Part shown: positions 10,036 through 55,372 of the stretch, piece after piece
How the letters are laid out: every line of letters begins with the position of its first letter
Position numbering within the stretch: position 1 is the first letter of the stretch
Translations under genes and position numbers: made by a program
Notes under the pieces: generated by a model
The model's input: only the letters and a program-made list of their open reading frames with translations
Database searches by the model: none
Told to the model about the DNA's origin: nothing
Assembly (NCBI RefSeq): GCF_033447055.1
Contig: NZ_JAWQJF010000061.1
Location: 21,780-85,779, forward strand
DNA from: Sedimentibacter sp.
Lineage (GTDB): Bacteria; Bacillota; Clostridia; Tissierellales; Sedimentibacteraceae
DNA length: 64,000 nucleotides
Direction: 5' to 3'

Positions 10036-10042
10036 ATTGTTT

Positions 10043-11317: not shown

Positions 11318-11345
11318 AAAAGGAGGAGGAAAACCTCCTTTTTAA
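11318..11345 (+). terminator. Intrinsic terminator
   Basis: aaaaggagg / cctcctttt stem (11318-11326 / 11334-11342) running into a T-run. Confidence 0.65.
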
Positions 11346-11366
11346 ATATAAAAAAATGCAAAAAAG

Positions 11367-11395
11367 TTGCGTAAAGCAATCTGCAGTAGTATAAT
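11367..11395 (+). promoter_or_regulatory. Sigma-A type promoter for tsaD
   Basis: TTGCGT (11367-11372), 17-nt spacer, TATAAT (11390-11395). Confidence 0.6.
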
Positions 11396-11423
11396 CTAGG
11401 CAATGTAAAACGTGGAGGATAAA

Positions 11424-12443: not shown

Positions 12444-12456
12444 TCAACAGATTAAT

Positions 12457-12496
12457 AAAAAAAAGTATCAACAGCTGTGGATAAAGCTGTTGATAT
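12457..12496. terminator. Terminator between convergent tsaD and the ABC-F gene (U-tract on the minus strand)
   Basis: 11-12 bp stem gtatcaacagct / agctgttgata(t). The A9 run at 12456-12464 gives a T-run for minus-strand transcripts. Confidence 0.65.
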
Positions 12497-12546
12497 AGTA
12501 ATATTGCGAAAAAGTTATACACAGCTTACAAACAATACGTGGATAA
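12476..12546. promoter_or_regulatory. Cluster of three DnaA-box-like 9-mers
   Basis: TGTGGATAA (12476-12484) is the perfect reverse complement of TTATCCACA. TTATACACA (12515-12523) matches 8/9. CGTGGATAA (12538-12546) matches 8/9. Confidence 0.5.
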
Positions 12547-12551
12547 CTTTT

Positions 12552-38799: not shown

Positions 38800-39894
38800 A
38801 TGATAGATAAAATTGTAAGAGCGATGATTACTACCATTGGAATATCTTTAGGTGTTTTTATTGGCGTAATGTTAAATCAAAATGGTCTTCTTAAATTTTC
38901 AGGGTTACAAAACATGCTAGTAATAATAAGTATCAGTTTAATTTTTGGAATTATATTTTTTCTTATTTCTGCTAAAATTAAAAAGACTGGGCAAAAGATG
39001 GTCGAAGCTTTTGAAAAAGAATTGTTGAAGTTTTCAACAATGGATATTATATTGGGAGCTCTTGGGCTTATTGTGGGATTTGTTATAGCATTCCTTATAA
39101 GCCAACCATTTTCAGATATCAAATATGTTGGAACGATAGTTTCATTATTGTCATATTTGTTATTTGGATATTTGGGAATAAAAATATCCACAAGAAAAAA
39201 AGACGATGTTATATGGCCACAGTTAAATCTTAAAAAAGTTCAGGCAACTAAGAAAACAGATAAAGGTTCTAAAAAAGAAATTGTTTTTCCTAAAATACTT
39301 GATACTAGCGTAATAATTGACGGAAGAATTTCTGACATATGTAAAACCGGATTTATTGAAGGCACACTTGTTATTCCGGAATTTGTTCTTAAAGAGTTAA
39401 GACACATTGCAGATTCATCAGACAGCCTCAAGAGAAACAGAGGCAGAAGAGGTTTAGATATTTTAAATATTCTTCAAAAAGATGATGCTGTAAATGTATT
39501 GATTGAATCAAAAGATTACGATGACAATATAGAAGTTGATATTAAACTTTTAAAATTAGCAAAAGAGCTTGGTGGAAAAGTTTTGACAAACGATTTTAAT
39601 TTAAACAAAGTTGCAGAGTTTCAAGGTGTTGAAGTTTTAAACATAAACGAACTTGCGAATGCAGTGAAACCTATAGTTCTTCCTGGTGAAGAAATGACTG
39701 TCATGGTTGTTAAAGATGGGAAAGAATCAGGTCAGGGATTGGCGTACTTAGATGATGGTACAATGATTGTTGTTGAAGGCGGCAAAAAGTGTATAGGCGA
39801 TTCAGTTGTAGTTACTGTAACAAGCGTTCTTCAAACTGCTGCAGGCAGAATGATTTTTGCAAAATTAAAAAATGTTATTAATAAAGCAGTATAA
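38800..39894 (+). CDS. PIN/TRAM domain membrane protein (YacL-like)
   Basis: Four N-terminal hydrophobic spans, a PIN segment ([12 protein letters not shown]...[16 protein letters not shown]) and a C-terminal TRAM-like beta segment. Confidence 0.85.
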
Positions 39895-39906
39895 ATAAGC
39901 ATAAAT

Positions 39907-39934
39907 AAAAAATACTCATATGAGTATTTTTTTA
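39907..39934 (+). terminator. Intrinsic terminator
   Basis: aaaaaatactca-ta-tgagtatttttt palindrome followed by a T-run. Confidence 0.65.
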
Positions 39935-40017
39935 TTTATGCGGTATCTTTCTTAACCTGTTGTATATGTTTTGAAGCATTGGTTAAAATATCAGTATAGG
40001 TGAATAGAGAGGTATAT

Positions 40018-40656
40018 ATGATAATTGTTGCTATTAGAGCAGTTATATTGTATGGAATTTTGCTTGTTGCTATGAGGATAATGGGAAAGGGAGAGTTGGG
40101 AGAACTACAGCCTTTTGATTTAGTCGTATCTTTGATGCTTGCTGAACTTGCAGTAATGCCTGTGGAGGATTTAGGAGCTCCACTGGTTCATGGATTTGTA
40201 GCAATTGCTGTAATTATGTTTTTACAATGCTTCATATCGTATGTTACTTTAAAAAACAATTACGCGAGGAAAATCATATGCGGTACTCCTACAATTATAA
40301 TTGACCATGGAAAATTTAATACAAAAGATATGAATAAGCTAAGGATAAATGTAAACGATGTGTTGGGGCAAATGCGTCTTAAAGGGTATTACAGCATTGA
40401 AAATATAGATTATCTCATTATGGAGACAAATGGCGAAATGAGTATTATTGCTCCGGATGATTATCCGGGTACAAGGTGTGAAAGAATACCTATTGCAACT
40501 ATTTTGGATGGGCAAATAATGAAAAACAATTTAAGCAAGTACAATATTTCAATGGATGATCTGCAGAAAGAATTAAATAAGAATAATATAAAATCTGAGC
40601 ATGTTCTGTACGGTTTCATCGATGAACAAAATAAATTTGTTTTTTATAAGAGGTAG
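40018..40656 (+). CDS. DUF421 (YetF-like) membrane protein
   Basis: N-terminal TM pair, then MGKGELGELQPFDLVVSLML, which is typical of DUF421. ATG 40018 follows agagagg. Confidence 0.8.
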   Translation: MIIVAIRAVILYGILLVAMRIMGKGELGELQPFDLVVSLMLAELAVMPVEDLGAPLVHGFVAIAVIMFLQCFISYVTLKNNYARKIICGTPTIIIDHGKFNTKDMNKLRINVNDVLGQMRLKGYYSIENIDYLIMETNGEMSIIAPDDYPGTRCERIPIATILDGQIMKNNLSKYNISMDDLQKELNKNNIKSEHVLYGFIDEQNKFVFYKR

Positions 40657-40658
40657 TT

Positions 40659-41042
40659 ATGAAGATGGTAGTTATTTCCTTACTGGTTTTATTATTATTT
40701 GTTGGTGCGTGGATATGGTTTTATTATAATTCTGTAGAGCCCGTGACCACTTATTATTGGGAGAAATTAATTGAATTGTCAAACTCAATTTATGCTGACG
40801 ACTGGCAAATTGCTGAGTACGACATGCGTAATTATTTTGGAAAATGGAAAGATACAAGAAATTTATGGATTTATTTCATAAATCAAAATGATATAGACAA
40901 TATAGACTCTTCTATCAGAAAACTTGATTCATATATAAAAAACAGAGACAAAAATATGGCTCAAGCGGAGCTTGAGCATTTAAGAGTTTTATTTAATGTA
41001 ATTAATGAAAATGAATGCTTGTCTTTAGAAAATATTATGTAA
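40659..41042 (+). CDS. DUF4363-like small membrane-anchored protein
   Basis: 127 aa with a single N-terminal TM. It sits in the usual position downstream of DUF421 genes (from memory). Confidence 0.6.
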   Translation: MKMVVISLLVLLLFVGAWIWFYYNSVEPVTTYYWEKLIELSNSIYADDWQIAEYDMRNYFGKWKDTRNLWIYFINQNDIDNIDSSIRKLDSYIKNRDKNMAQAELEHLRVLFNVINENECLSLENIM

Positions 41043-41043
41043 T

Positions 41044-41937
41044 TTATTTAACTGTATTGATAAGCGTTCCAATACCTTCAATTACACATTCCATTTTATC
41101 TCCGGATTTTAAATACTTAGGCGGATTGAAACCTGCACCTACTCCTGCAGGAGTGCCTGTCAATATAATGTCTCCTGGATACAATGTTATTCCTGAAGAG
41201 AGATCACTTAAAATTGTAGGGATATCAAAAATCAACTGGCTTGTATTGCCGTTTTGTCTTAATTCATCGTTTATATAGCTTTTGATTGCTAATTTCGGCG
41301 GGAATGAAATTTTTGATTTATGGACAATGTAAGGTCCTAACGGGCAGAATGTATCAAAGGATTTTCCTTTGTGCCATTGCACATGTGATGTTTGAATATC
41401 TCTAGCTGATATATCATTCGCAATTGTATATCCAAATATGTAGTCTTCCGCTTCTTCTTTAGATATGTTTTTGCATTTTTTGCCTATTATTACAGCAAGT
41501 TCTACTTCGTAATCCAATTCTTTAACAATATTTGAATGAGAATCTACAAATTCTTTATTACCAATTGCCGGGTAAGCAATTTTACTGAAATAAATTGGTT
41601 TACTTGGAACATCAGAAGTGACACTTTTTAAACTTTTTACTTCGCTTATATGGTCCATATAATTTTTTCCGAGACATATTACATTTCTTTTAGGGTATGG
41701 TATAGGTGATAATATTTTTACTTTATCTAAATCTATTACTTCTTTGCATGAAAGAATAATCTCATTAATTTTTTCTTTTTCAAGATTGTTAAAAGAATCA
41801 ATAAGATTTAGCATATCAGTAGGAACCGGAATATTTAATTTAGAAAAAACTGTCGAAGAAGGAATCACTCCGTTTTTTTCTTCATTTAAAAAACCTGTAC
41901 ATTCTAAATTATCATAAGAATAAGTCAATAAATACAT
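41044..41937 (-). CDS. Fumarylacetoacetate hydrolase (FAH) family protein
   Basis: Motifs DYEVELAVIIGK and ILTGTPAGVG. Start at ATG 41937 after GGAGG. Confidence 0.85.
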   Translation of the reverse strand: MYLLTYSYDNLECTGFLNEEKNGVIPSSTVFSKLNIPVPTDMLNLIDSFNNLEKEKINEIILSCKEVIDLDKVKILSPIPYPKRNVICLGKNYMDHISEVKSLKSVTSDVPSKPIYFSKIAYPAIGNKEFVDSHSNIVKELDYEVELAVIIGKKCKNISKEEAEDYIFGYTIANDISARDIQTSHVQWHKGKSFDTFCPLGPYIVHKSKISFPPKLAIKSYINDELRQNGNTSQLIFDIPTILSDLSSGITLYPGDIILTGTPAGVGAGFNPPKYLKSGDKMECVIEGIGTLINTVK

Positions 41938-42041
41938 AAATGCCTCCAAATTTTATTTTATATCACTATAATATATTTTTTTGTATTTTTCAAGTAAAAT
42001 TGTTGTTTTCAATACTCAAGAAAGTTGTAAAGTAACTCATA

Positions 42042-42070
42042 TTGCAGTATATTAATTCCTGTGATATAAT
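42042..42070 (+). promoter_or_regulatory. Promoter of the giant-protein operon
   Basis: TTGCAG (42042-42047), 17-nt spacer, TGaTATAAT (TATAAT at 42065-42070). Confidence 0.55.
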
Positions 42071-42105
42071 GAAAATGATTAAATTCATATTTTAAGAGGT
42101 GCAGC

Positions 42106-45100
42106 ATGAGTAGGTTTATGTTGAATGAGTTACATAAAGAAATATTACTAAGTTTGACGCAGAAAGAATTTCTAAAACAAATTAATTTATCAGAGGAGAA
42201 AATTCAATCATTTATTATTAATAAGAAATTTGTAAATAATTTATTAATACTTATTAATAAAAAACAATTGCTGTGCAAGGACGTTCTTGATATTTCTTAT
42301 GATATTTTAAATAGCGTTTGCACAGAATCTCCAAAAGACTGGCTTCTTTATGTTTTCCAATATGTTCTAAATAAATCATTTCCTGAAGCAACAACAATAA
42401 AGCTTAATCCTAAATATGAAATTGGTGTGCTCATATATCTTGAAATACTGAAAACAATTTTACATCACGCAAAAAATAGTGATGTATTTGATAAATATGC
42501 AGATTTTAATTTTTTAACTGAAAATGAAATAAGCGAACTTCCTAATCCGGAAGAATATATGATTTTTATAGACAAGTTCGATAAAAATTATATATATGAA
42601 CTCATGATGCTTGATGCAGAAGTGAATGGATATAATACACTAAAACATGTTGCAGCAGTTCATTACGTTGCCATGCATATAGCAAGACAGCTTAAAAAAG
42701 TTGGGATTACAGTAAATTTAGGATTAGTTTCCGGTGCGGCTGCAGGCCACGATATAGGAAAATATGGATGCAAAGGTCTTGAGAAAAGAAGGGTGGCATA
42801 TCTTCATTATTATTATACAGATCAATGGCTTGTAAAATTTAATATGCCTGGAATATCTTTAATTGCTGCAAATCATTCTACTTGGGATTTAGAACTTGAA
42901 AATTTACCATTGGAATCATTAATTTTAATATATGCTGATTTCAGAGTTAAGAATAAATCAACGAAAAACGGCAATGAAATGTACATTTTTGATTTAAATG
43001 AATCATTTCAGATAATTCTTAATAAACTTGACAATGTAGATGAAGCAAAAGAAAAAAGATATATGAGAGTTTATTCGAAGTTAAAAGATTTTGAAAATTA
43101 TATCATTCATAAAGGAGTAAATACAGATTTTAAAACAGAACAACCGTCTGTATCCAAAGTTATTGATTATGCATTAATTGATGGTCATGATGTTGTAGAA
43201 AATTTTAAATATATGGCGATTGAACACAATACTTCTTTGATGAGTAAACTAAACAATGAAGCTAACTTTGCAAGCATGATAGAGGCTGCAAGAAGCGAAC
43301 AGGACTGGAAGAATTTAAGGTCTTATTTAAATATACTCGAAGAATATTCAATATATCTTTCTCAAAAAGAAAAACTATTTACTCTTAGCTTTTTGTATGA
43401 ACTTTTAGTTCACAGAGAAGGCGATATAAGGCGTCAGGCAGCATGTCTAATGGGTAGCATTATTGTATCATTTAACCTGGAATATTCAAAGGAAATTCCT
43501 GGTGATGTTAAATTCGATATTAGTGAAGATATGAGTAGTCTGTCTATTTGGGATAAATATTTGGGACTTTTTCTTGACCCTGGTTATAAAGTAACAGATA
43601 ATCACAAGGAATGGATAGGGTATTCTCTTAGAATATTTGTAGATGCCGTAATTAATTCCAAAAGGAATAATGATAAAAAAAGCTATTTGGATATATTTTT
43701 AAATCATTTTAGATATGAAGAAGAATATGTGGCAAAATTAAGTTGTATAAATTCGCTTCTTAGTATACCTGTTGACTTGTATGAGACAGATCAGTTAACT
43801 TATGTCATAGATTATTCCATCGACTCGCTAAATAATTCTGCTAATGATATAAGGCTAATGGCAGTGCAGTTTTTTAATTTAGTTGTTAAGAATAGGAATA
43901 TTGCTAATGATGCTTTGAATAAAATTCGTGAATTTATATTAGTTATTTCAGAAAGTGATGGACTTTGCATAAATTATTTGAAATATAAAATAGCCAAGAA
44001 TTTATACATGACTGAAGATTTAATTAAGAGCTATAAAACGCTTATAACAAGCAGATGTTATAAAACTTCTGATTTGTTTCTTAATAACCTGAAAGCTGCT
44101 ACACCATGGAATGTAAAAACAATTAGCATTGATTATATCATGGATCATATAAAGAATACAAATGACGTTGCTTTACTTCAAACTGCAACACATTTGGCAA
44201 ACCTTGTCAAAGTCAGCGCAAAAGAATCTGTAAGGAATAAAGCGGGAAATTCTTTAGTAGAAATCGGTCCATTATTAACAGTAGATCAAAGAAATGAAAT
44301 TGCATTTGAATTAATTAAAGGCCTTGAAATAGATGAACTTCAATATGCTAAATATATACCCGAATACTTGGGACGCTTTGTGATGCTTTTAACTCCAAAG
44401 GAACTTGATGAATTTATTAATGATTTAAAAAATATTTATAAAGGTTCTAATGAAAGAGCCAGTGCTCTTGTTATTAATACATTTGGTGTAATGGTTCAAC
44501 ATTATCCTGAGTATAAAAATAGATTTGATGAAGAAGATGAAGTGTACAATAGAAGATTTGTTAAGATTCTGAGTATCATTTTAAGCGGCCTTGCCAATTA
44601 CAATTTACAAGTTAAACAGGAGACATTTCTTGTAATTGGACAACATATTTTTGGCTCTAAGAAATTGAATTTAGAAGAAAAAAATAAAATATTCTTGTTG
44701 ATTTACAAGAAACTTCTTACATTAATCAACGAAAAAGAATTAGGCGATTTGTTTTTCTTCAACAATTCAGCATCATTTAACCATATTTATAGATTTATAA
44801 GTGATTATGAATTTTATTATAAGAATTTTGATATTAATATAAACAGAAATGTTGCATTTTTCCCGGGAACATTTGATCCGTTTTCGCTTAGTCATAAAGG
44901 AATTGTGGAGGAAATCAGAAATCTTGGTTATGATGTATATTTGGCTGTTGATGAGTTTTCATGGTCTAAAAAAGTTCAACCAAGAATGATTAGAAGACAA
45001 ATTATAAATATGTCAATAGCAGATGAGTTAGGGGTATTTTTGTTTCCTGATGATATTCCTGTTAACCTTACAAGTGCATATGATCTGAAAGGTTTGAAAG

Positions 45101-46971
45101 ATTTGTTTCCGGAAAAGGATATTTACATTGTTGTCGGAAGTGACGTATTGATGAATGCTAACGCATATAAGGCAAGACCAACAAAAAATTCTATTCATAG
45201 CTTTAATCACATAGTATTCAAAAGGACAAAGGATGATTTAACTCCTGCCGCTATGAAAAAAGCTGATGAAAATAAAAACAGAATAAAAGGGTCCCTTGTA
45301 GAGCTACATCTTCCTTTATACTTAGAAGATATCAGTTCAACTCAGATAAGAGAAAATATTGATAACAACAGGGATATTTCTAATTTAATAGATCCGTTGG
45401 CGCAAAGTTTTATCTATGACAGAAATTTGTATATAAGAGAACCTTTGAATAAAAGTATTTTAAAATCTAAACCTTTTATAATAGAAGTAGTTGAAGATTT
45501 GAGCAAAAAAATTGTTGATGAAATAGGTCATTATATTTTTATGCATACAAATCTTTATGAAAATATTGGAGAAGAATTAGTATCTAAAAACATAAAATTG
45601 TTGGTAATAAGGGACGGGAAAAATTCCAATAAGCTTCTAGGATTTTCGGCTTTCCACAAAATTGCATCTTCGGAAGTGTATTCGGAGTTTAAAAGTCAGG
45701 ATATTGCAAATCATGTAAGGGAAAAAACAGCCGGAAGAATAATTATAATCGATGGAATTTTTATAAATCCAAGTAAAATCTATGACAATATGGAACAAAT
45801 TATAATAACAGAAACTCTGGCATATTGTTTGAAAAATGATTTTACTTATGCACTTTATTACAATATTCTATCTAACATTAACAGTGAAGCAGTAATTGAA
45901 ACATTAGAACTTCAGGGGTTTATTAAAATTGAAGATGAAGGAATGAATAAAACTGTCTATGCAGTTGATATGAAATTTCCTATTTGCCTTACTCTTAATT
46001 TAGAAAGTTTTATAAAAGAGCCATTGAATGCAAATGAAAAAGTACATGAAGCGATTGGAATTGCTAGAAAGAAATTACAAAAATCGATGACGGAGCTTTA
46101 TCCGGGAAGTCTGGTATTATCAATTGACAATGATATGATAAATCAGACATTAATTAATAAAATATGTAGCATAAACAATGTTAGCAACGAAGTGCAGGTT
46201 CCAAGAACAACAGGGGATTACATGTGCGTTCCTTTTGGTAATATTTTAAAGGGGATGGTTGTGCCTAATACGGTTACGAAATCGCTGCATACTGAGAAAG
46301 TATACTCTACTGATGCAAAACGTTTCAAAATTTCAGAATATCCTTGTTATTCACCGATAGAAAATCAGGTTAAAACTATAAAGTCTTTTGAAAAACCGGT
46401 AATTTTAGTAGATGATTTGCTTCATAAGGGTTATAGAATTAAAGAATTAGATCCAATATTCAAAAGATATAATATTGAAGTAAAAAAAATCATCGTAGGT
46501 ATAATGTCAGGAAGAGGAAAAGATTTAATGGATATACAGGCTAGAGATTCAGATTGTGCATATTTTATACCTAATTTAAGGTTATGGTTTAATGAAAATT
46601 TAATGTATCCGTTTTTAGGCGGAGATGGTATGTGGCATAATAATGAGAATATGCTGAATTTGATTCCATCAATCAACCTTATACTTCCATACTACGCTCC
46701 GGTGTATATCGACAATGCTTCAAATGAGGCAATATATAATTTATCCATGGTTAGTCTCGAAAATGCAAAGAACATACTTCGTGTTTTAGAAACGGAGTTT
46801 CAGGAATTGTATGAGAAAAAACTTACGGTGAAAAGGCTTGGCGAAGTTCTTTTATCTCCAAGACTGCCGTATTTGGGAGACAATATATCTTATGATTTAA
46901 ACATGGAAGCATCAGGTTATATGGATGTAAGCATTGAAACATTGATAAAACTTGAAAGGATAATAAAATAA
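42106..46971 (+). CDS. 1,621-aa multidomain protein: HD phosphohydrolase / helical (HEAT-like) repeats / NadD-like nucleotidyltransferase / GNAT-like / type-I PRTase-like
   Basis: HD: H181, GHDIGK (aa 214-219, nt 42745), ADF (aa 277). Nucleotidyltransferase: VAFFPGTFDPFSLSHKG (aa 916, nt 44851) and ISSTQIRENI...LIDPLAQSFIYDRNLY. PRTase loop: PVILVDDLLHKGYRI (aa 1431, nt 46396). RBS agaggtg. Confidence 0.85.
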   Translation: MSRFMLNELHKEILLSLTQKEFLKQINLSEEKIQSFIINKKFVNNLLILINKKQLLCKDVLDISYDILNSVCTESPKDWLLYVFQYVLNKSFPEATTIKLNPKYEIGVLIYLEILKTILHHAKNSDVFDKYADFNFLTENEISELPNPEEYMIFIDKFDKNYIYELMMLDAEVNGYNTLKHVAAVHYVAMHIARQLKKVGITVNLGLVSGAAAGHDIGKYGCKGLEKRRVAYLHYYYTDQWLVKFNMPGISLIAANHSTWDLELENLPLESLILIYADFRVKNKSTKNGNEMYIFDLNESFQIILNKLDNVDEAKEKRYMRVYSKLKDFENYIIHKGVNTDFKTEQPSVSKVIDYALIDGHDVVENFKYMAIEHNTSLMSKLNNEANFASMIEAARSEQDWKNLRSYLNILEEYSIYLSQKEKLFTLSFLYELLVHREGDIRRQAACLMGSIIVSFNLEYSKEIPGDVKFDISEDMSSLSIWDKYLGLFLDPGYKVTDNHKEWIGYSLRIFVDAVINSKRNNDKKSYLDIFLNHFRYEEEYVAKLSCINSLLSIPVDLYETDQLTYVIDYSIDSLNNSANDIRLMAVQFFNLVVKNRNIANDALNKIREFILVISESDGLCINYLKYKIAKNLYMTEDLIKSYKTLITSRCYKTSDLFLNNLKAATPWNVKTISIDYIMDHIKNTNDVALLQTATHLANLVKVSAKESVRNKAGNSLVEIGPLLTVDQRNEIAFELIKGLEIDELQYAKYIPEYLGRFVMLLTPKELDEFINDLKNIYKGSNERASALVINTFGVMVQHYPEYKNRFDEEDEVYNRRFVKILSIILSGLANYNLQVKQETFLVIGQHIFGSKKLNLEEKNKIFLLIYKKLLTLINEKELGDLFFFNNSASFNHIYRFISDYEFYYKNFDININRNVAFFPGTFDPFSLSHKGIVEEIRNLGYDVYLAVDEFSWSKKVQPRMIRRQIINMSIADELGVFLFPDDIPVNLTSAYDLKGLKDLFPEKDIYIVVGSDVLMNANAYKARPTKNSIHSFNHIVFKRTKDDLTPAAMKKADENKNRIKGSLVELHLPLYLEDISSTQIRENIDNNRDISNLIDPLAQSFIYDRNLYIREPLNKSILKSKPFIIEVVEDLSKKIVDEIGHYIFMHTNLYENIGEELVSKNIKLLVIRDGKNSNKLLGFSAFHKIASSEVYSEFKSQDIANHVREKTAGRIIIIDGIFINPSKIYDNMEQIIITETLAYCLKNDFTYALYYNILSNINSEAVIETLELQGFIKIEDEGMNKTVYAVDMKFPICLTLNLESFIKEPLNANEKVHEAIGIARKKLQKSMTELYPGSLVLSIDNDMINQTLINKICSINNVSNEVQVPRTTGDYMCVPFGNILKGMVVPNTVTKSLHTEKVYSTDAKRFKISEYPCYSPIENQVKTIKSFEKPVILVDDLLHKGYRIKELDPIFKRYNIEVKKIIVGIMSGRGKDLMDIQARDSDCAYFIPNLRLWFNENLMYPFLGGDGMWHNNENMLNLIPSINLILPYYAPVYIDNASNEAIYNLSMVSLENAKNILRVLETEFQELYEKKLTVKRLGEVLLSPRLPYLGDNISYDLNMEASGYMDVSIETLIKLERIIK

Positions 46972-48182
46972 TGTTCTATTACAAATTTAAAGGTAAATAT
47001 TTATTTTCATCAGATGAATACAGCTATGTTAAGGTAGATGGTATACCTGATAATTGCAATGAACTATACTTTTTATATAAATCAAAAAAACAATTTTCAA
47101 AAATGTCATTTGCAGTATCGGATGTACAGGATTTGTATGATTTTGAAGATAGTATTGATTTATTAAAATTAAAAGAAGAGTATGAATTGAAGGAATTATT
47201 GCCTGAAAAAATACTGAGTATGATATTTGAAAGAAAAATCAAAGCAGTAAATACAGAGTATGAATATTATGAAGAATGTTTTTACATGTCAGAAATTAAG
47301 AAGAAAAAAGTTAATGTTTTAGCTTTGGGAGATGTGGGAAGCACTTTGCTCACAGGATTAAAATTATTAGGTGGAGAATCTATTGAGTCAATAGGTATAT
47401 TTGATAGAAGCCAAGATAAAATCAAAAGATGGGAATATGAAATGAATCAAACTTCTCTTCCTTTTGATTATGATTATTTTCCAAATGTGCACGGAATAGA
47501 AAAACATGAATTATTTAATTGTGATATGTTTGTTTTTTGTGCTTCCAAGGGAGTTCCTCCTGTAGGAGCTGAGTCGGTTGACGTAAGAATGGTTCAATTT
47601 GAAGAAAATGCAAAGTTAATTAAAGAATATGCTCTAATGGCAGCTGACGTGGGATTCAAAGGAATATTTGCAGTAGTATCTGATCCGGTTGATCCTTTGT
47701 GTGCTTGTGTTCTAAAAGAAAGCAAAGGTGGTCTTGCTCCTGAACAAATAAAAGGATACGGACTTGGTGTCATGAATGCAAGGGCAATGTATTACGCTAA
47801 GAGCGATGAAAAGTTTTCTTCATACTTCAAAGAAGGAAGAGCATTTGGGCCACATGGAAATGATTTAGTCATTGCAAACAGCATAATCAACTATGACGAT
47901 GAAATTTCAAAGGAACTTACAAAACTTGCAGTTAGAGCAAATCTTGAAGTTAGAAAAATAGGATTTAAACCATATATTGCACCTGCACTTTCATCAGGAG
48001 CAATATCAATAATTTGTACTCTGGAAGGGAAATATCATTACAGCTCTAATTATTTAGGAGGTGTTTTCATGGGCGCAAAAAACAGAAATTTGCCTTCAGG
48101 ACTTGAAATAGAAAAAATTATAATGCCTGAAGATCTGTTCGTCAGAATAAAACATACATATGAAGAGCTTTTAAGGGTATAA
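46971..48182 (+). CDS. LDH/MDH-superfamily dehydrogenase-like protein with a ~110-aa N-terminal extension
   Basis: Rossmann start VNVLALGDVGSTLLTGL, then SDPVDP, GYGLGVMNARAMYY and GPHGND. The ATG overlaps the upstream stop (TAATG at 46969-46973). Confidence 0.75.
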   Translation: MFYYKFKGKYLFSSDEYSYVKVDGIPDNCNELYFLYKSKKQFSKMSFAVSDVQDLYDFEDSIDLLKLKEEYELKELLPEKILSMIFERKIKAVNTEYEYYEECFYMSEIKKKKVNVLALGDVGSTLLTGLKLLGGESIESIGIFDRSQDKIKRWEYEMNQTSLPFDYDYFPNVHGIEKHELFNCDMFVFCASKGVPPVGAESVDVRMVQFEENAKLIKEYALMAADVGFKGIFAVVSDPVDPLCACVLKESKGGLAPEQIKGYGLGVMNARAMYYAKSDEKFSSYFKEGRAFGPHGNDLVIANSIINYDDEISKELTKLAVRANLEVRKIGFKPYIAPALSSGAISIICTLEGKYHYSSNYLGGVFMGAKNRNLPSGLEIEKIIMPEDLFVRIKHTYEELLRV

Positions 48183-48221
48183 AATTAAAATTTAAAACTT
48201 AACGATATGGGTGGTGATAAT

Positions 48222-49295
48222 GTGGATAAATTATATGTGCTTATGCCGGGGAAAATATCACAAAGGCTTGAAAAAATGCTTGAATATTCTTTGATGGAAT
48301 ATGACTGCGACATAATTAAAACATGCGATGAATTGAAGAATATGAGAAACAAGAGAATATTATTTGCTGTGGAGTTGGGCGATTCGGGCATAAATATAGA
48401 GCATTTAAAAATGCTTGAAAAAATAAAATTATCCGGTTCTGACTTTATGGAAAATTCAGTTGGCAGCGTAATAATAAACAGCAACAATGAATTGTTTTCC
48501 AGAGATACAGCTCGAAAAACCATATTTTATGCAAACATGGCAGGATGCATGTTCCCGGGAAGGCCGCTGTCTGAAGCCACAGGTTCATTAAAAAATTTCA
48601 ATACTCAAAAAAAAATATCTGATTCAAATTTGAGTCTTGAAGATATTTGTCTCAATGATTGTAAAAATGTTGTTGATAGATTGATGAATTTCAGCATCAA
48701 TAAAATTGTTAAGCCGAAAATTTTGACACTTTATGCTAGCTACCACAAAAAATCAAATACATTTTCTTTGTGGAAGATGGTAAAGGAAAACCTAAAGGAA
48801 TACGATATTAGTGAGATTCACATAGAAAATGGTTCGGTAAAAGATTGTAAAGGCTGTTCATATAAAGCTTGCAAACATTACTCAGAGAGCAACAATTGCT
48901 TTTATGGAGGAATTATGGTTGAAGAAGTGTATCCTGCAATAATTGATTGCGATATTCTCATATTGCTTTGTCCGAATTACAACGATGCCATAAGTGCCAA
49001 TATGTCTGCTACTATAAACCGTTTGACAGCTTTATTTCGAAAAGTAAAATTCTATGACAAATATGTTTATGCGATAATTGTTTCCGGTTTTAGTGGAAGC
49101 GATATAATCGCCCAGCAGTTAATAAGTGGGTTGAATATAAATAAAACATTTATGCTTCCGCCTAAATTTGTTCTCATGGAAACTGCAAATGATTATGGAG
49201 ACATAGAAAAAATAGATAATATAAGAGATAAAGCAGCAGAATTTGCTGATAACATAAGTAAAGCGGGAAAATCGGGGATGGTTCTTTTTGATTGA
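48222..49295 (+). CDS. Two-domain flavodoxin-like / NAD(P)H-dependent FMN reductase-type protein with a Cys cluster
   Basis: C-terminal half: ILTLYASYHKKSNT...CKGCSYKACKHYSESNNCFYGG...LLCPNYNDAISANM. The start is either GTG 48222 (after GGTGGTGA) or the track ATG at 48207. Confidence 0.7.
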   Translation: MDKLYVLMPGKISQRLEKMLEYSLMEYDCDIIKTCDELKNMRNKRILFAVELGDSGINIEHLKMLEKIKLSGSDFMENSVGSVIINSNNELFSRDTARKTIFYANMAGCMFPGRPLSEATGSLKNFNTQKKISDSNLSLEDICLNDCKNVVDRLMNFSINKIVKPKILTLYASYHKKSNTFSLWKMVKENLKEYDISEIHIENGSVKDCKGCSYKACKHYSESNNCFYGGIMVEEVYPAIIDCDILILLCPNYNDAISANMSATINRLTALFRKVKFYDKYVYAIIVSGFSGSDIIAQQLISGLNINKTFMLPPKFVLMETANDYGDIEKIDNIRDKAAEFADNISKAGKSGMVLFD

Positions 49296-49326
49296 TATAA
49301 AGATTGAATATGAGGAGTCTTATTAA

Positions 49327-50100
49327 ATGATTAATTATACTAGAATAAAAATGTTAAATAAGGAAAAAACAATTGGAACATTTTTTGAACTTGGAACAGC
49401 TAACGCAGTAGAGGGCTTAGGCTATAGTGGTTTAGATTACATAATAATTGATACAGAACATGGTCCATTTGCAGAAGAAAGTGCTATGGAATTCATAAGA
49501 ACAGCAAAATTAAGCAAGTTAACTCCTTTTGTTAGAATTAAAGATATTACAAGACCATCAGTTTTGAGAATGCTTGATATAGGAGCAGAAGGATTAATTG
49601 TTCCATGTGTTGAAACGGTTGAAGAAGTTAAAAACCTTGTTAAGTGGGGTAAGTATGCTCCAATGGGCGAACGTGGATTTTTCTATGGCAGAGCAGCAGG
49701 ATATGGATACGAAGATTTTACATCTCCACTTAGTGAATACTTTAATAAATGCAACATCGAAACTATGATAATACCTCAATGTGAAACATTGGGGTGCTTA
49801 GAAAATATAGAAGAAATTATGTTGATAGATGGAGTTGATGGTATATTTGTAGGACCTTATGATTTATCTATAGCATTGGGTAAACCAGGGCAATTTAATA
49901 CAGATGAATTTACAGAAGCATTATCACGAATATTGAAAGCATGTATAAATGTCAATAAACCAGCAATGATATTTGCTAATGATCTAGAAACTGCAATAAA
50001 AGATTTTAATATTGGCTTTGATTCTGTGGCAATGGGCACTGATATTGCAGCACTTACAAACAGTTTCATGAGCATTGTAAACAAAATTAGGAAAGAATAG
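49327..50100 (+). CDS. HpcH/HpaI-family aldolase
   Basis: Motifs DYIIIDTEHGP, IVPCVETVEE, IIPQCET and FVGPYDLS. RBS gaggag. Confidence 0.85.
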   Translation: MINYTRIKMLNKEKTIGTFFELGTANAVEGLGYSGLDYIIIDTEHGPFAEESAMEFIRTAKLSKLTPFVRIKDITRPSVLRMLDIGAEGLIVPCVETVEEVKNLVKWGKYAPMGERGFFYGRAAGYGYEDFTSPLSEYFNKCNIETMIIPQCETLGCLENIEEIMLIDGVDGIFVGPYDLSIALGKPGQFNTDEFTEALSRILKACINVNKPAMIFANDLETAIKDFNIGFDSVAMGTDIAALTNSFMSIVNKIRKE

Positions 50101-50261
50101 TTAAATGGTTTTTAAAGAACTAGTAAAGCAAAACAGATGAAGTTGGATAAGAATGCTTAATTTCCGGTCCTTTAATTTATTAATTTTTATATGGAAGAAT
50201 GAACTTTAATACTATATAATATTAAAAAAGAATAAAAACATAAAATATTTGGAGGAACATT

Positions 50262-50531
50262 ATGAAGGTGAAAGTCTGTGTAGGTTCAAGTTGTACACTG
50301 CTGGGTTCAATGGGAATTTTAGATCAGATTGATGATTTGAAGGACATCATTAGCGAAGATGCAGAAAACTATAAAGATGAAGAGTTAGAAGTGGAAGCAG
50401 TTAAATGTTTAGGATTTTGTAAAGAAATTGGTGAAAAAGTATCACCTGTAGTAGTCATAGATGACGAGATTATGTTTAATGCCACTAGTCAGACCGTAAT
50501 GGAGAAAATTGTAAATAAAATGAGAAAGTGA
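50262..50531 (+). CDS. Thioredoxin-like [2Fe-2S] ferredoxin-type protein
   Basis: 89 aa. Cys pairs VCVGSSC and KCLGFC. RBS ggagga. Confidence 0.7.
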   Translation: MKVKVCVGSSCTLLGSMGILDQIDDLKDIISEDAENYKDEELEVEAVKCLGFCKEIGEKVSPVVVIDDEIMFNATSQTVMEKIVNKMRK

Positions 50532-50558
50532 TAGTAAGTAACTATAGGAGTAATAGTT

Positions 50559-52061
50559 ATGAAGGAAAGTTATGTTAATCTGATTAATATTAGAAGACAG
50601 GTTTTTGCAAAGATTGCTAAAATGGCATATGATGGTACTGATTTAAGTGAATTAGAAAAATTATCTTATGAGATTTTACCCGGAGAGGTAGCATTATATA
50701 GAGACAGTATATTTAGAGAGAGAGCAATAGTAGATGAACGACTAAGACTGACAATGGGGCTAGACGTAAGGAAACCAACTGAGTACCACCGAGTTACTGA
50801 CGGAATTTCTGAAGTAAATGTTAGTGAAATTCAATTTGTTGAGCCTTTAGTAAATATCATCACCTATGCATGTGAAGCATGTCCGACCAAAGCTTTTTAC
50901 GTTACGGACAATTGCAGAAAGTGTTTATCCCATCCCTGTACTAACGTATGCCCTGTAAATGCAGTTTCTATAGGGAAGGACAGAGCAATAATTGATCAGG
51001 ATAAGTGCATTAAATGTGGCAGATGTGAGCAAACATGCCCATATAACGCAATTGTGAAATATGAAAGACCTTGTGCAGCAGCATGTGGTGTTAATGCAAT
51101 AGAAAGTGATCATTTAGGAAGAGCTAAAATCAACCAAGACAGATGCGTATCTTGTGGGAATTGCATTATTCAGTGCCCGTATGGAGCGATTTCTGATAAG
51201 TCACAAATATATCAGCTTGTTATCGCTCTCAAAAACAATAGCCATATGTATGCTATAATAGCTCCGTCATTTTTAGGGCAGTTCGGACCATTAGCATCTC
51301 CTGCTCAAGTATTTGAAGGTATTAAACAGCTTGGATTTAGAGATATAGTAGAGGTAAGTCTGGGAGCTGATATTACAACTCTGCGTGAAGCAAAAGAATT
51401 TCTTGAAAGAGTACCTGAAAAAAATCCTTATATGGGAACAAGTTGCTGTAACTCGTGGACAATAATGGTTGAGAAGTTATTTCCGGATCAGTACCAATAT
51501 ATTTCAGATTCTGCTTCACCAATGGTTGAGACAGCAAAATATATTAAGGATAAAGACCCGGAGGCAAAAATAACATTTATAGGACCTTGTATTTCTAAGA
51601 AGTTAGAAGCATTAAGAGAAGATGTCAAGGATTATGTTCACTTTGTAATAACCTTTGAGGAACTCATGGGTATGTTTGTTGCTAAAGGAATTGAATTATC
51701 GGAAATTGAGGTGTCAAAAGAAATACAGGATGCTTCATCGCTGGGCCGCGGCTATGCCATAGCAGGAGGAGTAGCTGAAGCAGTGAAAAATACTGCTTTA
51801 AAAATTGATCCTTCAAGGGAAATAAATGTTGAAAGTGCATCTACTCTCCAAGAGTGTGTAAAACTAATGAGACTGGCAAAAGCAGGAAAAAAGAATGGGT
51901 ATTTGCTTGAAGGCATGGCATGCCTTGGCGGATGTATTGGTGGACCTGGAACAATATCTTCAATAAATAGAGTTAGAAAGGCAGTAACGGATTTTAAAAA
52001 TCAGTCAGCATATGAAACTCCATTTGATAATGATATTATTGATGAAAAATTGAAGAAGTAA
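50559..52061 (+). CDS. [FeFe]-hydrogenase-like protein with N-terminal 4Fe-4S ferredoxin domains
   Basis: Several CxxCxxCxxxCP motifs. H-cluster-type motifs TSCCNSW, GPCISKK and EGMACLGGCIGGPG. Confidence 0.8.
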   Translation: MKESYVNLINIRRQVFAKIAKMAYDGTDLSELEKLSYEILPGEVALYRDSIFRERAIVDERLRLTMGLDVRKPTEYHRVTDGISEVNVSEIQFVEPLVNIITYACEACPTKAFYVTDNCRKCLSHPCTNVCPVNAVSIGKDRAIIDQDKCIKCGRCEQTCPYNAIVKYERPCAAACGVNAIESDHLGRAKINQDRCVSCGNCIIQCPYGAISDKSQIYQLVIALKNNSHMYAIIAPSFLGQFGPLASPAQVFEGIKQLGFRDIVEVSLGADITTLREAKEFLERVPEKNPYMGTSCCNSWTIMVEKLFPDQYQYISDSASPMVETAKYIKDKDPEAKITFIGPCISKKLEALREDVKDYVHFVITFEELMGMFVAKGIELSEIEVSKEIQDASSLGRGYAIAGGVAEAVKNTALKIDPSREINVESASTLQECVKLMRLAKAGKKNGYLLEGMACLGGCIGGPGTISSINRVRKAVTDFKNQSAYETPFDNDIIDEKLKK

Positions 52062-52403: not shown

Positions 52404-52538
52404 ATGCCCTAACCCCATTTTTTAGAGTGATTTCTAAAAAATGGTTGGTAGGTCAAACGCAACGAAATCCAAATTTATGTGAGCGGTAGCGAACAAATAA
52501 ATTTATGATTGAGACTGTGAAATGCCCTAACCCCATTT
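52404..52538 (+). repeat. Intergenic structured repeat, copy 2, plus a 17-nt direct repeat of its own 5' end
   Basis: 52404-52517 aligns with 1294-1408. ATGCCCTAACCCCATTT occurs at 52404-52420 and again at 52522-52538, immediately before the btuC-like RBS. Confidence 0.85.
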
Positions 52539-52554
52539 GGGAAGGAAGGTTTAT

Positions 52555-53592
52555 ATGGATGAAATTCAAAAGCGAAAATGTAATCGCAATAAATATATAA
52601 TGATAGGATTTGGAATCTTCACACTGATAATAATAACACTTATTTCTGCTGTGGGTACAGGTGCAATGCAAATTGGGTTTGATGAATCTATGGGTATCTT
52701 GTTGGGAAAAATTACTCACCACTCTTTAAGCGGAATAAAGGAAAACATAGTTGCCGTAGTGTGGGAAATAAGAACACCTCGTGTTTTGTGCGGTTTGTTT
52801 GTGGGTATGGGGCTTTCCGTGGCAGGAGCAATATTCCAGTCACTTCTAGGAAATCCTCTGGCTGATCCTTATACATTGGGTATTTCCACCGGTGCGGCAT
52901 TCGGTGCATCACTGGCAATTTTATTAAATATTTTATATGGACTGGCATTACCTACAACTGTTTTTGCTTTTGGATTTGCAATTCTGACAATGATGATTGT
53001 GTTGTTGATTTCTAAGCGCAGCGGAGTTTATACCACAAGCAGCTTGATTATTTCGGGCATTATAATAGGTTCCATTTTGTCTGCAGGAATCAGTTTTATA
53101 AAGATGACTGCGGGGGAGGATGTGAGCGCCATAGTCTTTTGGATAATGGGAAACCTTGTGGCTTGCAAGTGGGCTGATGTATTTCTTTTAATGCCAACAG
53201 TCCTCACAGCTTGCATCATTGCTTACGCTTACGCTAATGATTTGAACATAATGACACTGGGAGACAAAGGTGCTCAGGCTCTTGGTGTAGACACAAAGAA
53301 AACACGTCTGATTTACATGATAATCGGGTCAAGTTTAACTGCTGTTTGTGTTTCTGTAAGTGGTGTAATTGGATTTGTTGGTCTTGTTGTTCCTCATCTG
53401 TTAAGAATGTGGCTGACAGCGGACAACAGGGTGATGATACCTCTTTCTGCGTTATTTGGAGGACTTTTAATGATGGTTGCAGACAATGTTACACGTTTGT
53501 TTTCTAATGGAGAGATTCCCGTCGGAGTACTGACCACTTTGTTTGGAGGGCCATTCTTCCTGTTTGTGTACTTTAAAGGTCCCAGGAGGTAA
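52555..53592 (+). CDS. FecCD-family ABC permease (BtuC-like)
   Basis: About 9-10 hydrophobic spans, with motifs LADPYTLGISTGAAFG and GEIPVGVLT. ATG 52555 follows GGAAGGAAGG. Confidence 0.9.
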   Translation: MDEIQKRKCNRNKYIMIGFGIFTLIIITLISAVGTGAMQIGFDESMGILLGKITHHSLSGIKENIVAVVWEIRTPRVLCGLFVGMGLSVAGAIFQSLLGNPLADPYTLGISTGAAFGASLAILLNILYGLALPTTVFAFGFAILTMMIVLLISKRSGVYTTSSLIISGIIIGSILSAGISFIKMTAGEDVSAIVFWIMGNLVACKWADVFLLMPTVLTACIIAYAYANDLNIMTLGDKGAQALGVDTKKTRLIYMIIGSSLTAVCVSVSGVIGFVGLVVPHLLRMWLTADNRVMIPLSALFGGLLMMVADNVTRLFSNGEIPVGVLTTLFGGPFFLFVYFKGPRR

Positions 53593-53594
53593 AC

Positions 53595-54383
53595 ATGAAA
53601 AAACATGATAATCTTACCCCTGTTTTAAGAGGACAAAATATTGATTTTAATTACGGAAAACGACAGGTTCTTACGGATATAAGCCTTGATGTCTATGAAG
53701 GCGAGTACATTTCTATAATCGGACCTAACGGCAGCGGTAAAAGCACGCTTTTTAATATACTCAGCGGATTGGAAAAATCAAAACATGGGAATGTGTACTG
53801 TGAAAATCAGACATTGCAAGATATGAATCCGAGGCTCAGGGCTCAATGCATAGCAATCGTCCAGCAAAATTCCCAACAAGCTATGCCTTTTACCTGCCTT
53901 GAAAGCATTTTACTGGGGGTTTATCCATACCAGGAACGCTTTGGTTCAATAAGTGATATACAGTATAAAAAGGTTATGCAATTGATGAAGGCTACAGATA
54001 CATGGAAATTGGCAGAGCAACCCATCACACAGATTTCCGGCGGTGAAAGGCAGCGTGTATCTTTGTGCCGGGCACTCGTTCAAGAGCCAAGGGTATTGCT
54101 GTTGGACGAAGCAATGTCTGAAATGGATATTTCTGTTTGTTCACAAATGTCCGAATTGCTTAAAAAGCTTTGCCGTGAGGATGGACTTGCTGTTATTGCC
54201 ATTCACCATGATTTAAATCTTGCATATGGTTGCAGCAATAAAATTTATGCCATTAAAGATGGCCGCTGTGCAGGTTTTGGCACACCTAAAGAGGTAATGA
54301 CGGAAGAAATGTTCCATCATGTTTTCAATGTTAAAGTTGAAATCTTTGAAAACAAAGGTTTCTTCATTAAAAATAAATTTTAA
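53595..54383 (+). CDS. ABC transporter ATPase (BtuD/FepC-like)
   Basis: Walker A GPNGSGKST, signature ISGGERQRV, Walker B LLLDEAMSEMD. Confidence 0.92.
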   Translation: MKKHDNLTPVLRGQNIDFNYGKRQVLTDISLDVYEGEYISIIGPNGSGKSTLFNILSGLEKSKHGNVYCENQTLQDMNPRLRAQCIAIVQQNSQQAMPFTCLESILLGVYPYQERFGSISDIQYKKVMQLMKATDTWKLAEQPITQISGGERQRVSLCRALVQEPRVLLLDEAMSEMDISVCSQMSELLKKLCREDGLAVIAIHHDLNLAYGCSNKIYAIKDGRCAGFGTPKEVMTEEMFHHVFNVKVEIFENKGFFIKNKF

Positions 54384-54404
54384 TTATAAAAAGGAGTAAA
54401 TTAA

Positions 54405-55304: not shown

Positions 55305-55372
55305 GCAAAAGACATATACCGAGGTGCTTCATGCCTCGGTACATTCTACTCGATTTAAGAAAAGAGGCAGCT

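Follow-up and report, generated by a model that had tools for sequence, protein, structure and literature searches.

A conserved three-gene cassette of anaerobic Clostridia headed by a giant HD–solenoid–NadD-like–GNAT-like–PRTase-like protein and completed by two redox-type partners

A giant protein encoded in a 64,000-nucleotide stretch of the Sedimentibacter sp. contig NZ_JAWQJF010000061.1 (positions 21,780 to 85,779 of the forward strand; this whole stretch is called the window below) heads a conserved unit of three genes, which is vertically inherited in anaerobic Clostridia. The protein, the product of open reading frame (ORF) 1, carries in this order an HD domain, a HEAT/ARM solenoid, a NadD/NMNAT-like nucleotidyltransferase (NTase), a GNAT-like fold and a purine-phosphoribosyltransferase (PRTase)-like domain. 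This order had been read from the letters alone in the initial annotation of this DNA and has been confirmed by profile and structure searches. The other two genes of the cassette code for a lactate dehydrogenase (LDH)-like protein (ORF2) and for an iron–sulfur (Fe-S) flavoprotein-like protein (ORF3). The cassette is real, strongly conserved and more than a product of chance. As for its function, the reading that we favor, tentatively and with less than even confidence, is that ORF1 may, together with the two redox partners, make and hydrolyze an NAD-like adenylylated ribotide. A fourth ORF follows on the same strand. The four genes lie at the positions first claimed for them, namely:

42106-46971, + strand, ORF1, 1621 aa
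46971-48182, + strand, ORF2, 403 aa
48207-49295, + strand, ORF3, 362 aa
49327-50100, + strand, ORF4, 257 aa

The ORF1/ORF2 junction is a 1-nt overlap (TAATG), and gaps of 24 and 31 nt separate ORF2 from ORF3 and ORF3 from ORF4, respectively. Homologues of ORF1 (which is identical to WP_318524707.1, named 'cytidyltransferase' in the database) fall into more than 7,000 protein clusters at 90% identity. Its C-terminal 721 residues match 656 clusters at 50% identity, 214 of them at E<=1e-30, and most of the proteins among the matches listed are 1,500-1,700 residues long and aligned at their C-terminus. At least 342 genomic stretches encoding such proteins are present in a one-genome-per-species collection, and 80 loci were retained; gut as well as environmental anaerobes are represented in the family. 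The 80 loci come from Sedimentibacter and other Tissierellia, Anaerovoracaceae, Peptococcaceae, Peptostreptococcaceae, Clostridium, Lachnospiraceae, Oscillospiraceae and Dehalobacterium, with ORF1 identity dropping roughly with taxonomic distance, from 86% to 38%. Gene linkage was counted by tblastn in the 63 non-redundant loci that offer at least 2.7 kb downstream of ORF1. Both ORF2 and ORF3 are present in 57 of the 63, strictly adjacent and on the same strand in 50 of those 57; only ORF2 is found in two loci and neither gene in four, and ORF2 comes after ORF1 in 59/63. This three-gene linkage spans Tissierellia, Anaerovoracaceae, Peptococcaceae, Lachnospiraceae, Oscillospiraceae and Clostridium. 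Junctions between ORF1 and ORF2 across the loci are often of -4, -1 or +1 nt, and such frequent stop/start overlaps suggest that both genes may be translationally coupled. An all-against-all clustering of the neighboring ORFs in the related loci revealed no further general partner genes.

The fourth gene has fared differently. It had been proposed at first that all four genes form one unit in which an HpcH aldolase, the LDH-like enzyme and the flavoprotein build the 2-oxo/2-hydroxy-acid moiety of a nucleoside-like metabolite, by analogy with the PRTase/HpcH pairing of tellurite-resistance (Ter) loci. ORF4 indeed codes for a bona fide HpcH/HpaI-family aldolase (PF03328, E 1e-27), and it starts shortly after ORF3 with its own ribosome-binding site (RBS) and with no predicted terminator in between. 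The survey of co-conservation across Clostridia, however, gives a unit of three genes, because ORF4 is found in none of 85 related loci (tblastn, E<=1e-5), including that of Sedimentibacter saalensis, whose ORF1 is 86% identical. ORF4 is a local addition in this genome, outside the conserved unit. Its absence from the related loci therefore removes the HpcH/CitE and tellurite-locus analogy, and no TerD, TelA or other Ter-type genes were found among the annotated ORFs of about 31-62 kb of the window or in the recurrent neighbor clusters. As a conserved system the four-gene pathway is thus refuted, and we give it hardly any credence as an account of this locus. Downstream of ORF4 there are genes for a thioredoxin-like [2Fe-2S] ferredoxin (50262-50531, +) and for an [FeFe]-hydrogenase-like protein with 4Fe-4S domains (50559-52061, +). 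The block 49327-52061, which comprises ORF4 and these two genes, has no tblastn match in the 85 related loci and is specific to this genome or lineage. A promoter-like element (TTGACA-16-TAAAAT, 49023-49050, +, 11/12 matches) lies within the 3' portion of ORF3, some 280 nt ahead of ORF4. Independent transcription of the aldolase from this element is conceivable, but sites of this kind are no commoner in this region than expected by chance.

The anatomy of ORF1 was worked out from, among other evidence, AlphaFold2 (AF2) prediction of two separate halves from a 26-sequence alignment (the N-terminal 900 and the C-terminal 721 residues), member-by-member Pfam and NCBIfam profile scans of 30 homologues with 27-47% mutual identity, and residue conservation in a 40-sequence alignment (26-72% identity to the ORF1 of the window). 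Pfam on the ORF1 of the window alone makes a single call, CTP_transf_like. The regions that are distinguished, with the evidence for each, are the following:

42106..42600, + strand, residues 1-165, N-terminal helical region (model all-helical, pLDDT ~90)
42601..43125, + strand, residues 166-340, HD phosphohydrolase domain (conserved residues, recurrent profile matches)
43126..44820, + strand, residues 341-905, HEAT/ARM-like alpha-solenoid (AF2 pLDDT 86, Foldseek)
44821..45450, + strand, residues 906-1115, NadD/NMNAT-like adenylyltransferase domain (PF01467, NadD models, Foldseek)
45451..46110, + strand, residues 1116-1335, GNAT-like fold (Foldseek only)
46111..46695, + strand, residues 1336-1530, type-I (purine-type) PRTase-like domain (weak recurrent profile matches, conserved residues)
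46696..46971, + strand, residues 1531-1621 and stop codon, C-terminal helical segment (AF2 helices, model residues 640-720; moderate conservation)

The HD, NTase and PRT-like domains are the three best conserved, and their catalytic residues are kept in 34-40 of the 40 sequences; the HD, NTase and PRT-loop motifs quoted in the initial annotation were all recovered at the residues given there. The model of the N-terminal 900 residues (pLDDT 86.4) is all-helical save for one beta hairpin in the HD region. Residues 1-165 are poorly conserved (2/165 columns at >=90%) and precede the HD domain, which is the best conserved of ORF1 (45/175 columns at >=90%). The metal-binding signature H...HD...D is present (H181, GHDIGK at 214-219 and D278), and conservation among the 40 sequences reaches 38 for H181, 37 for H215, 38 for D216, 37 for H234, 39 for H257 and 37 for D278. 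The Pfam HD model has no match in the ORF1 of the window at E<=1, and NCBIfam gives weak HD matches (DVU_1551-type HD, 7e-6; HDIG, 0.013). Across the 30 members the signal recurs: Pfam HD (PF01966) matches 13 of them (best E 2.4e-4) and the DVU_1551-type HD model of NCBIfam matches 25. No match to the YqeK model was obtained for the ORF1 of the window at E<=0.1, nor does YqeK appear among the families listed for the 30 members. The solenoid that follows resembles importin-alpha, PP2A-A, SF3B1 and CAND1 in Foldseek (E ~1e-5), and Pfam HEAT models match 14/30 members.

The middle module had been read as specifically NadD-like, and profile and structure searches place it inside this family, with motifs conserved family-wide. 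CTP_transf_like (PF01467) matches the ORF1 of the window at residues 918-1083 (E 2e-7) and 27/30 members. The NadD models are the best NCBIfam matches for the ORF1 of the window, below threshold, and match 28/30 members with a best E of 2.7e-17, compared with 9e-9 for PPAT and a single member (E 0.019) for CitC (PF08218); the fused NadD-HD model PRK07152 matches 18/30. In the PDB, nearly all of the top ~30 Foldseek hits are NadD or NMNAT proteins (E 6e-7 to 1e-4, target TM 0.57-0.71; 0.62-0.71 for NadD), the exceptions being SpNatD and one axonemal complex chain, and a profile search ranks human NMNAT1 first (2.5e-7) by virtue of the ISSTxIR...LY tail. The motifs are found at residues 921-932 (GTFDPFSLSHKG) and 1076-1085 (ISSTQIRENI). 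G921, F923, D924 and P925 are present in all 40 sequences, as are G1011 and R1082, while D1013 is kept in 37 and H930 in 34; the ATP motif reads S927-L-S-H930 in the window and (S/T)x(G/S)H in the family consensus. In total, 28/210 columns of this domain are conserved at >=90%. One explanation, which follows the database labels, would be that ORF1 belongs to ordinary NAD biosynthesis or salvage, being the NadD of the cell fused to a YqeK-like HD hydrolase and to a salvage PRTase. The rank of the NadD models and database source names that include 'nicotinate-nucleotide adenylyltransferase' speak for it. The scores, however, fall far under the equivalog cutoffs (TIGR00482, 46.5 vs 112.45 bits; NF000840, 36.6 vs 150), the PRT-like domain is purine-type and not a type-II nicotinate/quinolinate enzyme, the YqeK model finds nothing in ORF1 at E<=0.1, and the family is restricted to part of the Clostridia and tied to two redox proteins, all of which makes this explanation improbable. 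The current 'NadD' annotations of ORF1 homologues are probably wrong for the purposes of pathway reconstruction.

The C-terminal half of ORF1 was modeled with lower confidence (pLDDT 73.2). Its second domain has a GNAT fold, with Foldseek matches to NatD (4ua3, 1.5e-5), AtaT, GCN5, KacT and many viral GNATs, and to this extent the original assignment holds; the modification step that had been attached to it is doubtful. Pfam GNAT models have no match in the ORF1 of the window or in the 30 members. The beta4-alpha3 loop (NPSKIYDN) has no Q/RxxGxG/A acetyl-CoA motif, is free of glycine and varies among homologues, and the domain is the least conserved globular part of the protein (5/220 columns at >=90%). 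It is probably a GNAT in fold only and not a canonical acetyltransferase. In BFVD, giant-virus proteins, one from Yasminevirus (477 aa, annotated as NMNAT) and one from Klosneuvirus (626 aa), align over ~450 columns of the C-terminal model with a high root-mean-square deviation, which hints that giant viruses may carry multi-domain NMNAT fusions.

The PRT-like domain contains a phosphoribosyl pyrophosphate (PRPP)-type loop at residues 1431-1445 (PVILVDDLLHKGYRI). In this loop, V-I-L-V-D-D-L-L-H-K-G-Y-R, the hydrophobic stretch, the acidic pair and the Gly are present, and H/K stand where small residues are usual; D/S/R occupy these positions in some homologues. D1436 is conserved in 39 of the 40 sequences, D1437 in 35, G1442 in 34 and R1444 in 37, and 25/195 columns of the domain at >=90%. 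PF00156 (Pribosyltran) has no match in the ORF1 of the window at E<=1; it does match 4/17 close and 10/30 distant members (best 9.7e-6), and the NCBIfam matches among the 30 members are to APRT (16), archaeal HPT (10) and HGPRT (8). The 50 best Foldseek hits in the PDB include no PRT protein, and the structural matches in BFVD, to PRPP synthetase and PRT-domain proteins, are weak (E 7e-4 to 5e-3). Sequence and profile searches of the PDB with the HD, GNAT and PRT parts returned nothing significant.

Regarding the two partners, ORF2 is, judging from its sequence, a divergent member of the LDH/malate dehydrogenase (MDH) superfamily. It stays just under the Pfam cutoff for Ldh_1_N (26.4 bits vs 27), and L-LDH is ranked first in a PDB profile search (8.6e-10). 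Over 19 orthologues, R206, R271 and H295, the equivalents of LDH Arg109, Arg171 and His195, are invariant, and so is M268 (nt 47772-47774), which by motif alignment occupies the position of LDH/MDH Asp168, three residues before R271. The substrate loop has a conserved 5-residue insertion (KGVPPVG), and an N-terminal extension of ~110 aa is optional, being missing in some lineages such as Anaerovoracaceae. An NAD-type Rossmann motif is retained, together with the acidic residue that ends beta2. ORF3 can be described, on the same kind of evidence, as a two-domain Fe-S flavoprotein-like protein with an N-terminal domain and an Isf-type FMN_red domain (PF03358 at residues 170-328, E 5e-20, 72 bits), the latter with four invariant cysteines (C214-x2-C217-x4-C222-x8-C231). 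No family was detected for the conserved N-terminal domain of ~165 aa. The idea that it is a duplicate of the protein's own flavodoxin domain was discarded (hhalign probability 2.7%).

A further view of the system is offered by HD-less variants found among the shorter matches of the search with the C-terminal 721 residues. Variant A (P0216, 1075 aa, locus L090) has the order HEAT-NTase-GNAT-PRT and intact NTase motifs (SLGHE, VGEDV, VSSSLIR). Its locus (7002-13124) comes directly after rsmD-coaD and continues with genes for an LDH-like and an FMN_red protein. The three-gene linkage can therefore do without the HD domain. Variant B (P0240, P0241, P0253, P0218 and P0214; 1065-1244 aa) aligns to ORF1 from about residue 351-440 on and is preceded, abutting or overlapping, by a PPDK_N protein of ~850-895 aa in the five contexts examined (5/5; in L091 the upstream gene is cut by the contig end). 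The pairs of PPDK_N and variant-B genes are located as follows:

L086, 5449-11273, PPDK_N and variant-B pair
L087/L088, 5426-11198, PPDK_N and variant-B pair
L089, 5317-11303, PPDK_N and variant-B pair
L091, 3-5377, PPDK_N and variant-B pair
L092, 3365-9735, PPDK_N and variant-B pair

These partners are orthologous to one another (54-70% identity), carry the PPDK_N ATP-binding domain (PF01326, 1.3e-39) and resemble phosphoenolpyruvate (PEP) synthase, PigC and rifampicin phosphotransferase. A displaced HD domain was sought inside them, and BLASTP shows no similarity to the N-terminus of ORF1. Decay of the NTase motifs is seen in P0240, P0241, P0253 and P0214 (the HIGH His is changed to Asp, GxD is lost, and ISSTxIR has become INSDEVK and similar). 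The PRT-like motifs of variant B, on the contrary, are strictly conserved: CVPFGKIL...TEK, VDD(L/F)(Y/F)HKG(Y/F)R and W..ES..PF(I/V)GGDG. No LDH-like or flavoprotein gene comes after variant B in the contexts examined; only forms whose NTase motifs are intact were seen to have these two genes directly behind them. In L092, ORF2- and ORF3-type genes (a cassette end at 1-1110, with the ORF3-type gene confirmed by tblastn and the LDH-like gene by Pfam annotation) are found 2-5 kb upstream of the PPDK_N and variant-B pair; both systems can therefore coexist side by side. Since the PRT-like motifs are conserved in both variants, we infer that the PRT-like domain may be the invariant functional core, with a swappable ATP-using module exchanged between the NadD-like NTase and the PPDK_N enzyme. 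This module swap is a natural experiment, and it points to the PRT-like domain as the core.

Two other explanations of the cassette have to be weighed against these data. One is that ORF1 is an acid-activating ligase of the CitC or pantothenate synthetase type, in which the NTase-GNAT part would adenylate a 2-hydroxy or 2-oxo acid delivered by the LDH-like enzyme and pass the acyl group to a PRPP-derived amine or ribotide on the PRT-like domain; in variant B, the PEP-synthase-like enzyme would supply an activated three-carbon acid. NTase plus GNAT is the fold pair of CitC, and one of the 30 members matches PF08218. Moreover, both types of partner, LDH-like and PPDK_N/PEP-synthase-like, belong to families acting on pyruvate-type acids, and the LDH-like protein and the flavoprotein are lost where the PPDK_N protein appears. 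The NTase nevertheless resembles NadD/NMNAT much more than it does CitC, PanC or PPAT, the GNAT-like domain is poorly conserved and the order of the domains is reversed with respect to CitC, and we therefore find a ligase unlikely. The other explanation is regulatory: the PRT-like, GNAT-like and perhaps NTase domains would sense PRPP, purine nucleotides or NAD(H), and the solenoid would hold and control the LDH-like protein and the flavoprotein, or the PPDK_N enzyme in variant B. HEAT solenoids serve as scaffolds that bind proteins, and a large HEAT/ARM solenoid is typical of protein-protein scaffolding; PRT-fold sensor domains have established precedents in PurR and PyrR. The missing cofactor loop of the GNAT-like domain, the decay of the NTase motifs in the PPDK_N-paired variants with the fold kept, and the exchange of one enzyme partner for another (LDH-like protein and flavoprotein, or PPDK_N) would all agree with such a function. 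The near-invariant catalytic residues of the HD, NTase and PRT-like domains in the full-length family, on the other hand, are unexpected for purely ligand-binding pseudo-enzymes, and a sensor-scaffold of this kind seems to us a doubtful, if conceivable, answer.

We return to the proposal that ORF1 makes and hydrolyzes an NAD-like adenylylated ribotide. Enzymes of the NadD/NMNAT type transfer an adenylyl group to pyridine mononucleotides, type-I PRTases use PRPP to make ribotides, and HD domains fused to transferases typically hydrolyze the product of the transferase or a related nucleotide, as does YqeK with NadD and as occurs in SpoT and GlnD. With the domain identities, the conservation of the catalytic motifs and the three-gene linkage as the observed part, we infer the substrates, the order of the reactions, the complex and the roles of the partners as follows. 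ORF1 would be a multi-enzyme built on a HEAT solenoid of ~560 residues. The purine-PRTase-like domain would bind PRPP or a ribose-5-phosphate compound and form or hold a ribotide, and the NadD/NMNAT-like domain would move AMP from ATP onto this mononucleotide, yielding an NAD-like dinucleotide. The N-terminal HD phosphohydrolase may hydrolyze the dinucleotide product or a by-product, a role for which the synthetase/hydrolase pairing of NadD-YqeK, SpoT and GlnD offers support by analogy. The GNAT-like fold would be a structural or ligand-binding module and not an acetyltransferase. Finally, the LDH-like Rossmann protein and the Fe-S flavoprotein, presumably coupled to ORF1 in their translation, would probably dock on the solenoid and either use the dinucleotide or tailor it by redox chemistry. 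The idea, first suggested from the sequence, that a single polypeptide could form, adenylylate and hydrolyze a dinucleotide-type molecule is plausible, and the distribution of the partners, present with the NTase-intact form of L090 and absent from the PPDK_N-paired forms, agrees with the scheme. Several observations weigh against it. There is no conserved gene that supplies a base or a ribotide precursor; Ser/Thr takes the place of the first His of HxGH, unlike in NadD, although PPAT carries TxGH; the PRT-like domain is recognized from weak profile matches (best ~1e-4 to 1e-5) and weak structural ones, and its phosphate loop is HKGxR and not the canonical T/S-G-x-T; and ORF2, by motif alignment, has no counterpart of the catalytic Asp of LDH/MDH. 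The ~560-residue solenoid, the degenerate GNAT and the decay of the variant-B NTase would be just as compatible with ORF1 acting as a scaffold or sensor.

Should the product of the cassette prove to be a new dinucleotide, or should redox enzymes be under its control through nucleotide sensing, the cassette would represent a missing piece of nucleotide and redox metabolism in strict anaerobes, common genera of the human gut included. In its broadest and most speculative form, which we would not expect to hold in full, the proposal is that many anaerobic Clostridia, including abundant Oscillospiraceae and Lachnospiraceae of the gut, make a new adenylylated ribotide, an NAD-like dinucleotide acting as cofactor or signal. 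A single giant enzyme would build it from PRPP and ATP and degrade it, its reading or redox cycling would fall to a dedicated LDH-like protein and to an Fe-S flavoprotein, and a sister system would have a PEP-synthase-like enzyme in place of the adenylyltransferase step.

The near-consensus promoter that had been noted ahead of ORF1 is:

42042..42070, + strand, candidate promoter TTGCAG-17 nt-TGaTATAAT (sequence read)

The sequence exists and its extended -10 element (TGaTATAAT, 42062-70) is perfect, including the TG, but the -35 element (TTGCAG, 42042-47) has only 3/6 consensus bases. A consensus scan of the AT-rich region 41900-50700 finds 50 promoter-like sites vs 51.3 +/- 7.6 in shuffled sequences; the promoter is thus plausible, and credible through its -10, yet indistinguishable from background and not evidence in itself. 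A plausible RBS of ORF1 (AAGAGGTG) lies at 42094-42101, with a leader of ~30 nt, and no terminator is predicted inside the operon. No riboswitch or other leader control of ORF1 was found, the sole Rfam match in the window being the cobalamin riboswitch (RF00174, 52152-52331, +, 110 bits) of a downstream transporter operon. The ORFs behind it (52537-56845) code for a FecCD permease, an ABC ATPase, a CbiK cobalt chelatase and a periplasmic-binding protein with an SLH domain, and look like a corrinoid or cobalt uptake operon with no relation to the ORF1-ORF3 cassette. A link with cobalamin was considered (CobU/S/A genes in L001, CbiA/CobD/CobC in L004, and the riboswitch and CbiK operon in the window) and dismissed as lineage-specific synteny; in the clustering of neighbors over non-redundant loci, cobalamin genes form clusters of 3 loci from a few related lineages. 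Upstream of ORF1 there are genes for CsaB, TagA, a transaldolase, a split transketolase, CarD and a PIN-TRAM protein, which places the cassette in the core chromosome, and the GC content is flat across the operon, with no signal of horizontal transfer. This setting also bears on the notion that the cassette acts in anti-phage defense or biological conflict by depleting or modifying NAD or nucleotides. NMNAT-like, PRTase-like and HD domains do recur in NAD-centered conflict systems; PADLOC, however, has no match for ORF1-ORF4, the location is core and compositionally flat, the identity of ORF1 roughly tracks taxonomy and the flanking genes are housekeeping and variable, all of which leaves defense a very improbable function.

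The other recurrent neighbors are each restricted to certain lineages, the commonest being glutamate dehydrogenase (11 loci, mostly Anaerovoracaceae), followed in the list by Fur-like regulators and GlnK/GlnL-like two-component systems (both in Lachnospiraceae) and, in Sedimentibacter, the FAA hydrolase. The glutamate dehydrogenase gene is divergent and just upstream of ORF1 in Anaerovoracaceae-type loci (L013, L014, L016, L017, L019 and L032). In the Lachnospiraceae loci L039, L056 and L070, a Fur-family regulator is upstream of the cassette, and the GlnK/GlnL-like (YcbB) two-component system lies downstream of it in L039, L056, L040 and L073. In the window, the region 38800-41949, upstream of the cassette, holds the PIN-TRAM (YacL-like) gene, a DUF421 (YetF-type) and DUF4363 pair and a divergent FAA-hydrolase gene. 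Of these, the DUF421, DUF4363 and FAA-hydrolase genes are found repeatedly near the cassette across Sedimentibacter and other Tissierellia; L004 has them on the opposite side of the cassette, so the locus has been rearranged.

Among known systems, the closest arrangement is that of NadD and YqeK, including the fused NadD-HD protein (PRK07152); what the cassette has in common with it is the NTase subfamily and an HD partner, and no more. The NTase fold of ORF1 is that of NadD/NMNAT, with the motifs GxFDP, GxD and ISSTxIR and with (S/T)xGH where NadD has HxGH, and an HD domain (H...HD...H...D) is present in the same polypeptide. Unlike in NadD-YqeK, the order is HD, 560 residues of HEAT repeats and then NTase, GNAT-like and PRT-like domains are added, the gene is linked to those of an LDH-like protein and an Fe-S flavoprotein, the scores are below the NadD cutoffs and the YqeK model has no match. 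With APRT/HGPRT and with PurR/PyrR, ORF1 shares the hydrophobic strand, the acidic pair (VILVDD), and a Gly-containing loop, and there are weak recurrent matches to APRT, HPT and HGPRT models. It differs from type-I PRTases in its loop, LLHKGYR instead of the small residues T/S-G-x-T, and in large conserved flanking motifs (CVPFGxIL...TEK and W..ES..PF.GGDG) which are not known from characterized PRTases. Like CitC, ORF1 unites GNAT and HIGH-type nucleotidyltransferase folds in one polypeptide; unlike CitC, it has them in reversed order, its NTase is closer to NadD than to PF08218 and its GNAT-like domain is devoid of the cofactor loop. ORF2 resembles L-lactate and malate dehydrogenases in its NAD-binding Rossmann domain and in the equivalents of Arg109, Arg171 and His195, and departs from them by Met for Asp168, a substrate loop 5 residues longer, the optional ~110-aa extension and scores far under the cutoffs. 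ORF3 resembles Isf and NADPH-dependent FMN reductases in PF03358 and in the compact four-Cys motif at the N-terminus of the flavodoxin-like domain, and differs from Isf in the Cys spacing (CX2CX4CX8C) and in the extra conserved domain of ~165 aa. Database names for the ORF1 family are only generic ('cytidyltransferase', 'NadD', 'hypothetical'). A full-text literature search, whose coverage is incomplete, so that an earlier description may exist, gave no paper on the family or on its architecture; neither literature nor database searches found a biochemical characterization, in line with the statement in the initial annotation that no characterized protein of this architecture was known. We know of no characterized counterpart for the composition of the cassette or for the exchange of NTase and PPDK_N. 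In functional terms, the cassette is not assigned to any of the families NadD, YqeK, PRTase, GNAT and LDH. All the folds are known individually, and the novelty lies at the level of the system.

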